Part shown: piece after piece, positions 1 through 26,293 of the stretch | How the letters are laid out: each line of letters opens with the position of its first letter | How positions within the stretch are numbered: the stretch's first letter is position 1 | DNA from: a virus | UHGV virus genome: UHGV-0165251 | Length of the DNA: 26,293 bases | Reading direction: 5' to 3' (one strand) | Notes under the pieces: generated by a model | Seen by the model: the letters and a program-made list of their open reading frames with translations, nothing else | Database searches by the model: none | Told to the model about the DNA's origin: nothing | Position numbers and translations under genes: made by a program

Positions 1-52
1 TTATCAATTTGTTGCAACGAACAGGTCACTATCAGTCAAAATAAAATCATTA
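1..52. other. attL P' arm (partial); Int arm-type binding sites at 23..52; core lies just left of the window
   Basis: Sequence matches my recollection of the lambda attP P' arm (ttatcaatttgttgcaacgaacaggtcactatcagtcaaaat); three arm-type-like decamers (aggtcactat, cagtcaaaat, aaaatcatta) abut the int stop codon. Confidence 0.6.
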
Positions 53-1120
53 TTTGATTTCAATTTTGTCCCACTCCCTGCCTCTGTCATCACGATACTG
101 TGATGCCATGGTGTCCGACTTATGCCCGAGAAGATGTTGAGCAAATTTATCGCTTATCTGCTTCTCATAGAGTCTTGCAGACAAACTGCGCAACTCGTGA
201 AAGGTTGGCGGATCCCCTTCGAAGGAAAGACCTGATGCTTTTCGTGCGCGCATAAAATACCTTGATACTGTGCCGGATGAAAGCGGTTCGCGACGAGTAG
301 ATGCAATTATGGTTTCTCCGCTAAGAATCTCTTTGCATTTATCAAGTGTTTCCTTCATTGATATCCCGAGAGCATCAACATGCAATGTTGTAGGGATGGC
401 AATTTTTACGCCTGTTTTGCTTTGCTCGACATAAAGATATCCATCTACGATATCAGACCACTTCATTTCGCATAAATCACCAACTCGCTGCCCGGTAACA
501 ACAGCCAGTTCCATTGCAAGTCTTAGCCAACATGGTGATGATTCTGCTGCTTGATAAATTTTCAGGTATTCGTCAGCCGTAAGTCTTGATCTCCTTACCT
601 CTGATTTTGCTGCGCGAGTGGCAGCGACCGGGTTTGTTGTTATATGGCCTTCAGCTATTGCCTCTCGGAATGCATCGCTTAGTGTTGATCTGATTAACTT
701 GGCTGACGCCGCCTTGCCCTCGTCTATGTATTCATTGAGCATTGCCGCAATTTCTTTTGTGGTGATGTCTTCAAGTGGAGCATCAGGCAGGCCCCTCCTT
801 ATTGCTTTAATTTTGCTCATGTAATTTATGAGTGTCTTCTGCTTGATTCCTCTGCTGGCGAGGATTTTTTCGTAGCGATCAAGCCATGAATGTAACGTAA
901 CAGAATTATCACTGTTGATTCTTGCTGTCAGAGGCTTGTGTTTGTGTCCTGAAAATAACTCAATGTTGGCCTGTATAGCTTCAGTGATTGCTATCCTCCT
1001 GTCTCGGCCTAATCCAAACTCTTTACCCGTCCTTGGGTCCCTGTAGCAGTAATATCCATTGTTTCTTATATAAAGATTAGGGGGTAAATCCCGGCGCTCA
1101 TGACTTCGCCTTCTTCCCAT
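50..1120 (-). CDS. int: tyrosine integrase, lambda Int type
   Basis: 356-aa ORF starting MGRRRSHERRDLPPNLYIRNNGYYCYRDPRTGKEFGLGRDRR and ending with the HxxR...Y catalytic region; near-identical to lambda Int as I recall it. Confidence 0.95.
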   Translation of the reverse strand: MGRRRSHERRDLPPNLYIRNNGYYCYRDPRTGKEFGLGRDRRIAITEAIQANIELFSGHKHKPLTARINSDNSVTLHSWLDRYEKILASRGIKQKTLINYMSKIKAIRRGLPDAPLEDITTKEIAAMLNEYIDEGKAASAKLIRSTLSDAFREAIAEGHITTNPVAATRAAKSEVRRSRLTADEYLKIYQAAESSPCWLRLAMELAVVTGQRVGDLCEMKWSDIVDGYLYVEQSKTGVKIAIPTTLHVDALGISMKETLDKCKEILSGETIIASTRREPLSSGTVSRYFMRARKASGLSFEGDPPTFHELRSLSARLYEKQISDKFAQHLLGHKSDTMASQYRDDRGREWDKIEIK

Positions 1121-1316
1121 TTCTGATCCTCTTCAAAAGGCTACCTGTTACTGGTCGATTTAAGTCAACCTTTACCGCTGATTCGTGGAACAGATACTCT
1201 CTTCCATCCTTAACCGGAGGAGGGAATATCCTGCACTCGCGTACCCATCGACGAACTGTTTCAAGGCTTCTTGGGCGTCGCTGGCGTGCGTTCCACTCCT
1301 GAAGTGTCAAGTACAT
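1098..1316 (-). CDS. xis: excisionase Xis
   Basis: 72-aa product MYLTLQEWNARQRRPRSLETVRRWVRECRIFPPPVKDGREYLFHESAVKVDLNRPVTGSLLKRIRNGKKAKS inside the listed 102-aa ORF; overlaps the int start by 23 nt as in lambda. Confidence 0.9.
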   Translation of the reverse strand: MYLTLQEWNARQRRPRSLETVRRWVRECRIFPPPVKDGREYLFHESAVKVDLNRPVTGSLLKRIRNGKKAKS

Positions 1317-15077: not shown

Positions 15078-15681
15078 ACCAGCGCGAAGACGATGTAAAA
15101 ACGATGAATGTCGGGAATGGTTTCACCCTGCATTCGCCAATCAGTGGTGGTGCTCTCCAGAGTGTGGAACCAAGATAGCACTCGAACGACGAAGTAAAGA
15201 ACGCGAAAAAGCGGAAAAAGCAGCAGAGAAGAAACGACGACGAGAGGAGCAGAAACAGAAAGATAAACTTAAGATTCGAAAACTCGCCTTAAAGCCCCGC
15301 AGTTACTGGATTAAACAAGCCCAACAAGCCGTAAACGCCTTCATCAGAGAAAGAGACCGCGACTTACCATGTATCTCGTGCGGAACGCTCACGTCTGCTC
15401 AGTGGGATGCCGGACATTACCGGACAACTGCTGCGGCACCTCAACTCCGATTTGATGAACGCAATATTCACAAGCAATGCGTGGTGTGCAACCAGCACAA
15501 AAGCGGAAATCTCGTTCCGTATCGCGTCGAACTGATTAATCGCATCGGGCAGGAAGCAGTAGACGAAATCGAATCAAACCATAACCGCCATCGCTGGACT
15601 GTCGAAGAGTGCAGGGCCATCAAGGCGGAGTATCAGCAGAAACTCAAAGACCTGCGAAATAGCAGAAGTGAGGCCGCATGA
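15070..15681 (+). CDS. ninG: NinG (Rap) recombination-associated endonuclease
   Basis: 203-aa product near-identical to lambda NinG as I recall it. Confidence 0.9.
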
Positions 15682-17815: not shown

Positions 17816-18139
17816 ATGAAGATGCCAGAAAAACATGACCTGTTAGCCGCCATTCTCGCGGCAAAGGAACAAGGCATCGGGGCAATCCTTGCGTTTGCAA
17901 TGGCGTACCTTCGCGGCAGATATAATGGCGGTGCGTTTACAAAAACAGTAATCGACGCAACGATGTGCGCCATTATCGCCTGGTTCATTCGTGACCTTCT
18001 CGACTTCGCCGGACTAAGTAGCAATCTCGCTTATATAACGAGCGTGTTCATCGGCTACATCGGTACTGACTCGATTGGTTCGCTTATCAAACGCTTCGCT
18101 GCTAAAAAGGCCGGAGTAGAAGATGGTGGTAATCAATAA
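17816..18139 (+). CDS. S: S holin/antiholin (dual start M1-K2-M3)
   Basis: [41 protein letters not shown]... matches lambda S107/S105. Confidence 0.9.
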
Positions 18140-18599
18140 TCAACGTAAGGCGTTCCTCGATATGCTGGCGTGGTCAGAGGGAACTGATAACGGACGGCAG
18201 AAAACCAGAAATCATGGTTATGACGTCATTGTTGGCGGAGAGCTATTCACTGATTACTCCGATCACCCTCGCAAACTTGTCACGCTAAACCCCAAACTCA
18301 AATCAACAGCAGCCGGACGTTACCAGCTTCTTTCCCGTTGGTGGGATGCCTATCGTAAGCAGCTTGGCCTGAAAGACTTCTCTCCGAAAAGCCAGGACGC
18401 TGTGGCATTGCAGCAGATTAAAGAGCGTGGCGCTTTACCGATGATTGATCGCGGTGATATTCGTCAGGCAATTGACCGTTGCAGCAATATCTGGGCTTCA
18501 CTGCCGGGCGCTGGTTATGGTCAGTTCGAGCATAAGGCTGACAGCCTGATTGCAAAATTCAAAGAAGCAGGCGGAACGGTCAGAGAGATTGAGGTATGA
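18123..18599 (+). CDS. R: R endolysin (lytic transglycosylase)
   Basis: 158 aa, near-identical to lambda R ([17 protein letters not shown]...). Confidence 0.9.
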
Positions 18600-19033
18600 G
18601 CAGAGTAACCGCGATTATCTCCGCTCTGGTTATCTGCATCATCGTCTGCCTGTCATGGGCTGTTAATCATTACCGTGATAACGCCATGACCTACAAAGAG
18701 CAGCGCGATAAAGCCACATCCACAATCGCTGACATGCAGAAGCGTCAACGTGATGTAGCTGAACTCGATGCCAGATACACAAAGGAGCTTGCTGATGCTA
18801 ACGCGACTATCGAAAGTCTCCGTGCTGATGTTTCTGCTGGGCGTAAGCGCCTGCAGGTCGCCGCCACCTGTGCAAAGTCAACGACCGGAGCCAGCGGCAT
18901 GGGCGATGGAGAAAGCCCAAGACTTACAGCAGATGCTGAACTCAATTATTACCGTCTCCGAAGTGGAATCGACAAGATAACCGCGCAGGTTAACTACCTG
19001 CAGGAATACATCAGGACGCAATGCCTTCGATGA
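18596..19033 (+). CDS. Rz: Rz i-spanin
   Basis: N-terminal TM helix and coiled-coil periplasmic domain; N-terminal third matches lambda Rz, the remainder diverges. Confidence 0.85.
18795..18980 (+). CDS. Rz1: Rz1 o-spanin lipoprotein, embedded in the +1 frame of Rz
   Basis: aaaggag RBS 7 nt upstream; signal peptide with lipobox LLGVSAC and proline-rich mature part ([16 protein letters not shown]). Confidence 0.7.
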
Positions 19034-24195: not shown

Positions 24196-25080
24196 ATGGA
24201 AAACGAACTGATCATCGACGGTCAGGTTATTGACCTGTCTGAAACACAGGAAAATGCAGAAGAAACCATCATCCAAACAGAGTCACAGCCTGAGAATGAA
24301 AGCCAGGATGACAACGGAAAAGAGATGGCATCTGATCCTGAAAAAACCGAAGAGACACCAGAAGATTACGCCTTGCGTATTGGTGATGAAGAAATTCAGC
24401 TTAACGCTGACGATGATGATCACATTGACGGGCAACCTGCACCGCAATGGGTGAAAGATCTTCGCAAAGGCTTCAAAGAAACACAGAAAGAAAACCGTGA
24501 GTTGCGCCGCCAGCTTGAGGAAGCATTAGCCAAGCCTGCGGAACATCAGCAACCACAACCAGACGATATTCCACCAAAACCGACTCTTGAGTCGTGTGAT
24601 TATGACGAACAGGCGTTTGAACAGGCATTGACTGATTGGCATGAGAAAAAAGGCCGTGTCGAACAGCAGCAGCAACAAAAACTACGTCAGCAACAGGAAT
24701 ACCAACAGCGTTTCCAGCAAAGGGTAGAAGCGCATAAACAACGGGCAGCCAAACTTCCTGTGAAAGATTATCAGGAAATGGAGGCCATTGTTCTTAGTGA
24801 GCTACCACCAATTCAGCAGGAAATCATCATTCACTGTGCAGACGAAGGCTCTGAACTACTCGCCTATGGCTTAGGTAAGAGCCAGCAATTACGCCAGCGT
24901 GTAGCCGCTGAGACAGATCCAATTCGCGCAGCATTCCTCTTGGGGCAGATTAGCAAACAGGTAAGCCTTGCTCCAAAACCAAAGAAAGCCATCAAGCCAG
25001 AGCCGGAAGTACGTGGTGGCGGTGCTGATGCGAAACAAGACGAATTCAACAAATTATGCCCCGGCGCAAAAATCGAATAA
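24196..25080 (+). CDS. scaffolding protein
   Basis: Acidic, Q-rich, helical 294-aa protein between portal and coat, as in P22-like head modules. Confidence 0.7.
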   Translation: MENELIIDGQVIDLSETQENAEETIIQTESQPENESQDDNGKEMASDPEKTEETPEDYALRIGDEEIQLNADDDDHIDGQPAPQWVKDLRKGFKETQKENRELRRQLEEALAKPAEHQQPQPDDIPPKPTLESCDYDEQAFEQALTDWHEKKGRVEQQQQQKLRQQQEYQQRFQQRVEAHKQRAAKLPVKDYQEMEAIVLSELPPIQQEIIIHCADEGSELLAYGLGKSQQLRQRVAAETDPIRAAFLLGQISKQVSLAPKPKKAIKPEPEVRGGGADAKQDEFNKLCPGAKIE

Positions 25081-25091
25081 GGAAAAGATAA

Positions 25092-26243
25092 ATGCCTAAC
25101 AATCTCGACAGTAACGTCAGTCAAATCGTTCTGAAAAAATTCCTTCCGGGTTTTATGTCAGATTTAGTTCTGGCGAAAACCGTAGACCGTCAGTTGCTGG
25201 CAGGTGAAATCAACTCCAGCACTGGCGATAGCGTTAGCTTTAAACGTCCGCATCAATTCTCATCCCTCCGTACTCCAACTGGTGATATTTCAGGGCAAAA
25301 TAAAAACAACCTGATCTCAGGTAAAGCTACTGGGCGTGTAGGTAACTACATCACTGTTGCTGTTGAATATCAGCAACTGGAGGAAGCGATCAAGCTTAAC
25401 CAACTGGAAGAAATTCTCGCGCCGGTTCGCCAGCGAATCGTTACCGACCTTGAAACAGAGCTTGCTCACTTCATGATGAATAACGGTGCGTTGTCACTTG
25501 GTAGCCCCAATACTCCAATCACCAAATGGTCTGATGTTGCGCAGACGGCATCTTTCCTGAAAGACCTCGGCGTTAATGAAGGTGAAAACTATGCTGTAAT
25601 GGATCCATGGTCTGCACAGCGACTTGCTGATGCGCAGACTGGTTTGCACGCTTCAGATCAATTGGTTCGTACTGCATGGGAGAATGCACAGATCCCGACC
25701 AATTTTGGCGGCATTCGCGCACTGATGTCTAATGGGCTTGCCTCTCGTACGCAGGGGGCATTTGGCGGAACACTGACAGTCAAAACACAGCCAACTGTTA
25801 CCTATAACGCAGTTAAAGACTCATACCAGTTCACTGTAACATTGACCGGAGCGACAACCAGCGTTACAGGTTTCCTGAAAGCTGGTGATCAGGTTAAATT
25901 CACCAATACATACTGGCTGCAACAGCAGACCAAACAGGCGTTGTATAACGGAGCCACACCAATTAGCTTCACTGCAACGGTTACTGCTGATGCTGATTCA
26001 GACGGCAGTGGCGATGTGACGGTTACGCTTTCTGGTGTTCCGATTTATGACACTACAAACCCGCAGTACAACTCTGTAAGTCGTCAGGTAGCGGCAGGTG
26101 ATGCCGTATCTGTAGTAGGCACTGCTAGCCAGACAATGAAGCCAAACCTGTTCTATAACAAGTTCTTCTGTGGACTTGGCTCTATCCCACTGCCGAAACT
26201 GCACAGTATTGATTCTGCTGTTGCAACATATGAAGGTTTCTAG
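25092..26243 (+). CDS. major capsid (coat) protein, P22/Sf6 type, apparently 3'-truncated by IS2 insertion
   Basis: 383-aa ORF at the coat position; its stop TAG is the first three bases of the IS2-like terminus; P22-type coats are ~420-430 aa. Confidence 0.8.
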   Translation: MPNNLDSNVSQIVLKKFLPGFMSDLVLAKTVDRQLLAGEINSSTGDSVSFKRPHQFSSLRTPTGDISGQNKNNLISGKATGRVGNYITVAVEYQQLEEAIKLNQLEEILAPVRQRIVTDLETELAHFMMNNGALSLGSPNTPITKWSDVAQTASFLKDLGVNEGENYAVMDPWSAQRLADAQTGLHASDQLVRTAWENAQIPTNFGGIRALMSNGLASRTQGAFGGTLTVKTQPTVTYNAVKDSYQFTVTLTGATTSVTGFLKAGDQVKFTNTYWLQQQTKQALYNGATPISFTATVTADADSDGSGDVTVTLSGVPIYDTTNPQYNSVSRQVAAGDAVSVVGTASQTMKPNLFYNKFFCGLGSIPLPKLHSIDSAVATYEGF

Positions 26244-26293
26244 ACTGGCCCCCTGAATCTCCAGACAACCAATATCACTTAAATAAGTGATAG
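26241..26293. mobile_element. IS2 left terminal sequence (element continues beyond the window)
   Basis: tagactggccccctgaatctccagacaaccaatatcacttaaataagtgatag matches the IS2 left inverted repeat end as I recall it. Confidence 0.7.

Follow-up and report, generated by a model that had tools for sequence, protein, structure and literature searches.

The left end of an IS2 element truncates the coat gene of a mosaic Sf6/HK620-type prophage of Escherichia coli

In the cryptic or IS-disrupted lambdoid prophages of E. coli (K-12 among them) and Shigella, a gene is interrupted by an insertion sequence and the element then persists vertically. IS2, a 1331-bp member of the IS3 family of E. coli, carries the transposase genes insC and insD (orfA and orfB), which are expressed with a programmed frameshift, and generates a 5-bp duplication of its target. 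Likewise, copies of IS2 have been found in prophage genes, such as those lying in the NleG homologue of the Stx2a phage 1447 (Stx2a_1447) and adjoining the int gene of SfX.

For the coat (major capsid) gene described here, the closest known counterparts are gp5 of Sf6 and gp5 of HK620, which belong to the same protein family (PF11651) and occur in the same order of head genes as in our prophage. The capsid structures solved as PDB 5L35 and 7SP4 contain Sf6 gp5 at full length. Compared with both proteins, the coat encoded at this locus is without residues 384-423. The DNA under study, to which we will refer as the window, is the whole stretch of 26,293 nucleotides of the virus genome UHGV-0165251. 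As its best explanation we propose, with considerable confidence, that the left end of IS2 is joined to the coat gene directly after codon 383 and has left a prophage without a capsid of its own.

A coat gene that stops at the left end of IS2

An ORF on the plus strand of the window (25092..26243) runs for 383 codons and ends at a TAG stop. Its coding part (25092..26240) was assigned, from its matches to PF11651, Sf6 gp5 and the coat of E. coli 18KM2445, to a truncated coat gene holding codons 1-383 of the 423-codon gp5 of the Sf6/HK620 type. The Pfam profile P22_CoatProtein (PF11651; HK97 fold with I-domain) matches this ORF with an E value of 3.6e-123 over profile positions 5-384 of 423, whereas Sf6 gp5 covers positions 5-423, and the product is thus a truncated and not a full-length member of the family. 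Aligned with Sf6 gp5 (423 aa), the product shows 99% identity over 383 residues, the alignment ends after F383, and the last 40 residues of gp5 (SIRVHKYADGDANVQKMRFDLLPAYVCFNPHMGGQFFGNP) are absent. With the first 383 aa of the coat of 18KM2445, the closest complete E. coli genome (423 aa, WP_001133483.1-type), there are no amino acid differences at all, and only 3 of the 1149 DNA positions differ. In a megablast search with 25092-26293, query bases 1-1150 matched the coat genes of 237 complete E. coli genomes (up to 99.7%) and 10 phages, with Sf6, HK620 and their relatives at about 99%, and the homology to coat genes stopped at query base 1150, which is position 26241 of the window. The gene also occupies the position expected for a head module of the P22 type, in the order small terminase, large terminase, portal, scaffold and coat.

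The rest of the window belongs to IS2. Positions 26241..26293 (plus strand), which read TAGACTGGCCCCCTGAATCTCCAGACAACCAATATCACTTAAATAAGTGATAG, comprise the left terminal inverted repeat (IRL) with its adjoining bases and are cut by the window end. They are identical to IS2 copies at 53 of 53 positions, and query bases 1150-1202 gave 100% matches to IS2 ends across thousands of genomes as well as several phage records, including records of phages grown on K-12. In one phage record, the same 53 nt sit 91 nt upstream of insC, and they therefore correspond to the left end of the element. The orientation is such that insC and insD would be co-directional with the late operon. A 30-nt IRL pattern occurred once in the window and never in 100 shuffled versions, and the pattern of the right end (IRR) is absent from the window. 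Only the end of IS2 is thus visible here, in comparison with the complete element of E. coli, and the sister contigs described below likewise end within it.

Read directly from the sequence, the junction consists of GAAGGTTTC on the coat side followed by TAGACTGG on the IS2 side, where the uninterrupted native site has GAAGGTTTC followed by TCCATCCGC (also given as GAAGGTTTC followed by TCCATCC). The native codon after F383 is TCC (Ser384), and in its place stands a TAG at the IS2 terminus (26241..26243, plus strand), made of the first three IS2 bases, so that no foreign residues are added; its T can be assigned either to the coat, as in the native TCC, or to IS2. A preliminary description, made from the letters alone, had taken the final 53 bp for the left terminus of IS2 with its TAG serving as the coat stop, and had given the product as 383 aa, its relatives as about 40 aa longer and the gene as interrupted. 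The 53-nt match, unique in the window, bears out the former, and the alignments with the 423-aa proteins of Sf6 and 18KM2445 make both lengths exact. Every close relative is longer than the product by 40 aa, homology stops at 26241, and the observation of a coat ORF truncated by IS2 is confirmed.

The missing part can be placed on the fold of the P22 coat. In a BLASTP alignment, F383-S-I of Sf6 pairs with F381-S-I of P22, and the 40 lost residues align with about 382-430 of P22 gp5. The structure of the P22 procapsid at 2.6 Å assigns residues 31-33, 79-127 and 358-416 to the P-domain and residues 128-221, 346-357 and 417-430 to the A-domain, and temperature-sensitive folding mutations of P22 lie at G403, Y411 and P418 (PMC9965877). 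By the alignment and these domain limits, the lost part corresponds to some 35 residues at the end of the P-domain, with the C-terminal strands of its sheet, plus the terminal A-domain segment, all of which belong to the core of the HK97 fold. A product of 383 aa should consequently not fold or assemble, and since the lost strands are central to that fold, the prophage would almost certainly no longer be able to build capsids of its own.

The junction in sister contigs and the far side of IS2

At least 10 contigs, drawn from ENA, NCBI and Logan, carry an ORF for exactly the same 383-aa protein. The carriers include the 113.5-kb contig NODE_8 of ENA assembly ERZ653892, Logan contigs from SRR5155915 (a contig found in 4 samples), SRR6028274 and SRR6028636, and several NCBI contigs. 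When four contigs were compared with the window as DNA, stretches of up to 11,140 nt showed no mismatch, and these contigs stop either 55 or 26 nt inside IS2. A further carrier of the same prophage, the 52-kb NODE_34 of ERZ1026992 (in 7 samples), was found by look-up of the integrase; over 11,120 nt its integrase region does not differ from the window, and the end of the contig is calculated from coordinates to fall 51 nt inside IS2. Every sister contig thus stops between 26 and 55 nt inside IS2, and the window does so at 53 nt, which makes its right edge most likely a contig end at a repeat and not the boundary of the prophage. The same junction was obtained by different pipelines (SPAdes-style NODE contigs of ENA, NCBI contigs and k=31 contigs of Logan), and its repeated assembly indicates that it is real and not the artefact of a single assembly. 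The scaffolding protein gene upstream (24196..25080, plus strand; PF09306) provides a marker of the lineage, as its exact allele occurs on 10 contigs, only together with the 383-aa coat or on contigs that end before the coat is complete. Exact look-up of this allele in the collections searched gave no uninterrupted version of the prophage.

Some other features of these assemblies deserve description. The Logan k=31 contigs L003, L004 and L005 stop 26 nt into IS2 (window 26241-26266), where 30 nt would be expected. It follows that those genomes should have a further IS2 copy placed after TTTC, which could reflect chance or a target preference. In other E. coli lineages, the 3' end of the coat gene is itself a recurrent assembly breakpoint, and not one caused by IS2. 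Eighteen contigs (entries L007-L016) from unrelated samples and with different tail modules all start at the base corresponding to window position 26214 (TCTGCTGTTGCAAC...), which lies 27 nt before the IS2 site, within coat genes that are otherwise native, and mirror-image partial coats end at residues 387-408. Such a breakpoint may correspond to a short stretch common to co-resident P22-like elements.

A simple insertion makes specific predictions for the far side of IS2. Given the 5-bp duplication typical of this element, the five target bases GTTTC (26236..26240, plus strand) would be expected again beyond it, in a right junction reading ...GGGGCAAATCCA GTTTC TCCATCCGC... (also given as GGGGCAAATCCA GTTTC TCCATCCGCGTAC) and containing an ORF, either edge-partial or starting with GTG, that would read ..(MITD)VWKYRGKSSFSIRV...GNP. 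The exact pattern of the left junction gave no matches in GTDB representative genomes, IMG/VR and JGI metagenomes; among 5,426 complete E. coli genomes neither junction was present, and none of them covered more than 96% of the 25092-26293 query. Patterns combining IRR, GTTTC and coat, also with a spacer of 0-12 nt, had no matches in IMG/VR or in genome and metagenome collections, and a synthetic right junction of 325 nt matched complete E. coli genomes only through its two halves, separately. At the protein level, exact look-up of 10 N-terminal variants of the right-junction ORF (..WKYRGKSSFSIRV..GNP) among about 15 billion predicted proteins returned none, and the only matches to the predicted 54-aa junction ORF in a homology search were native fragments from contig edges. 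For other lineages, 49-aa edge-partial fragments of the same coat region are on record. Among the public sequences searched, no contig crossing IS2 was found.

One protein, P0004 (FSIRV..., 41 aa), was considered as a fragment of the right flank and discarded, because the proteins clustered with it have start sites at many nearby codons; a fuzzy contig break of another lineage is its more likely source. The 90%-identity cluster of P0001, made of coat fragments of 30-54 aa, also holds an unrelated 780-aa methyltransferase-like protein (P0016) and one coat fragment attributed to Catellatospora, the latter probably through assembly contamination; both entries appear to be database noise.

Alternative readings of the junction

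Two alternatives to a broken coat gene have to be weighed. That the 383-aa protein is a natural or still functional short coat, and the prophage viable, seems to us extremely improbable, the sole point in its favour being that the first 383 residues are undamaged. The PF11651 profile and all the close coat homologues run to 423 aa, and none of the relatives ends naturally at residue 383; homologues that did so would, according to the preliminary description, have refuted the interruption. Other short relatives exist in the protein collection, with 387, 399, 402 and 408 aa; those of 387, 399 and 408 aa are partial proteins broken off mid-sequence and cut by contig ends, and the 402-aa form carries three terminal residues that do not match the coat sequence. 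A naturally short coat was rejected on the basis of the profile and the homologues, and against a functional one it also counts that the lost segment comprises the core strands to which the folding mutants of P22 map. The other alternative keeps the coat intact in the genome and explains the junction by a chimeric read or a graph error that joined an IS2 end to a contig end. The window does end within a repeat, where assemblers are least reliable; however, the identical junction has been assembled independently by different pipelines from many samples, and no contig pairs this scaffold allele with a full-length coat, so that an artefact of this kind is close to refuted and, in our estimation, very unlikely.

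A different question is how IS2 came to lie there. We consider a simple transposition with duplication of GTTTC to be the probable event, although with moderate confidence. It is possible, if rather doubtful, that IS2 marks instead the edge of a deletion, an inversion or another rearrangement mediated by the element, with the remainder of the coat either absent or elsewhere in the chromosome. In such a case, genes for head completion, ejection and the tail would perhaps also be gone, and the element would be a prophage remnant and not a prophage with a single insertion. The absence of right-junction peptides from the collection, despite at least 10 contigs with the left junction and comparable edge fragments of other lineages, is mild evidence for a rearrangement. 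The lack of any uninterrupted copy of the prophage in the collections points in the same direction, and so does one carrier contig with a different host-side join at an ERIC repeat, which indicates that rearrangement or mis-joining occurs in these assemblies. However, simple insertion is established as by far the commonest outcome of IS2 transposition, and the junction is a clean one, at the exact terminus of the element. Moreover, a missing small ORF is weak evidence, as gene callers may skip an ORF of 50 aa that starts with GTG or lies at a contig edge. Whether by simple insertion or by rearrangement, the coat gene is broken at codon 383.

Gene content, expected phenotype and related prophages

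Apart from its coat, the element is a typical mosaic P22-like/lambdoid prophage of E. coli with head genes of the Sf6/HK620 type. An intact integrase of the lambda type with complete Pfam domains (50-1120, minus strand) and an intact 72-aa excisionase (1098-1316, minus strand), identical to the Xis of five other prophages, lie at one end beside host genes, as in an integrated lambdoid prophage. Pfam and PHROGs coverage supports early genes for an ERF recombinase, anti-RecBCD, Kil and cIII; the regulatory genes cI (HTH plus S24 peptidase), Cro and cII; the replication genes O and a DnaB-type P; a nin region with NinB, a methyltransferase, NinG, NinH and a phosphatase; a full-length Q-like antiterminator for late control; and an Sf6-type small terminase, large terminase, portal and scaffold. 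The lysis cassette (17816..19033, plus strand) encodes full-length holin, endolysin and Rz spanin with near-complete coverage of PHROGs 126, 90 and 13. The initial claim that the lysogeny, replication and lysis modules are intact agrees with this coverage, by which int, xis, cI, O/P, Q, holin, endolysin and spanin look full length. Among the ORFs of the window that were compared, which did not include every small one, no other truncated gene was seen, and the window holds no tRNAs. The set of virion genes is incomplete in the window, with the coat truncated and the genes for head completion, ejection and tailspike outside it.

Beyond the integrase, the sister contigs carry a ybhC-like pectinesterase gene along with further host genes, a neighbourhood that in K-12 is that of att-lambda. 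Positions 1-60 of the window begin inside an arm of a lambda-like attachment site (CAGGTCACTATCAGTCAAAATAAAATCATTATTTGATTT), about 11 nt from the core-like GCTTTTTTATA of a sister contig. On the left, the window therefore ends at a trimmed boundary of the prophage, in contrast to the right, where it most likely ends with a contig. In the host flank outside the window (at about 15080-15158), the carrier contigs L022 and L018 show no difference across the prophage and the ybhC/ybhJ-like genes and diverge right after an ERIC-type repeat (GTGAATCCCCAGGAGCTTACATAAGTAAGTGACTGGGGTGAGCG), beyond which one of them has the usual neighbours and the other has fbaA/mscS/argO-like genes, either through a chromosomal rearrangement or through a mis-join by the assembler at the repeat.

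From this arrangement, a likely course of events can be proposed. IS2 would have entered the late operon by transposition or recombination, its left end facing the 5' part of the coat gene, and translation of the coat now stops at the terminal TAG of the element, yielding a 383-aa product without the last 40 residues. If the insertion was a simple one, the last 40 coat codons and the genes for head completion, ejection and tailspike would follow 1.3 kb further on, past IS2, and transcription of the genes beyond would need to cross the insertion or to start from it. The lysis cassette and the other genes upstream of the junction are unaffected. As Int, Xis, cI, O/P, Q and the lysis genes are all upstream and intact, the prophage should still be repressible, induction should lead to excision, replication and lysis, and it is a sound expectation from the sequence that the prophage would produce no infectious particles unless a related phage supplies the coat. 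We see a very small chance that the host keeps the coat-less prophage as a capsid-free module, for immunity, superinfection exclusion or inducible lysis, or that the element spreads as a satellite borrowing the coat of a co-resident or superinfecting Sf6/HK620-like helper, an idea suggested by the intact pac/terminase, portal and scaffold and by the occurrence of the element, unchanged, in a dozen or so samples.

For annotation purposes, the prophage should be scored as defective, with its coat as a pseudogene, and the point where the window ends on the right is to be treated as a break of the assembly at a repeat. A lysogen may still lyse upon induction without releasing phage. Insertion of an IS is an ordinary route of prophage decay, of which this locus offers one more case, in which one hit in an essential structural gene inactivated a prophage, and it raises no new question.

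Outside the head genes, the prophage differs from Sf6 and HK620 in being a different mosaic, with an integrase of the lambda/HK97 type, an ERF recombinase and a DnaB-type P. At most 52% of the window is shared with any phage record and 66% with any complete E. coli genome, and this mosaic is recorded only in draft assemblies and only in its interrupted form. In comparison with the IS-disrupted and cryptic lambdoid prophages of E. coli and Shigella, the target here is the major capsid gene, whereas the regulatory, replication and lysis genes in view are intact. In a window that ends inside IS2, these intact upstream genes suggest a fairly recent inactivation by a single hit and not an eroded remnant.
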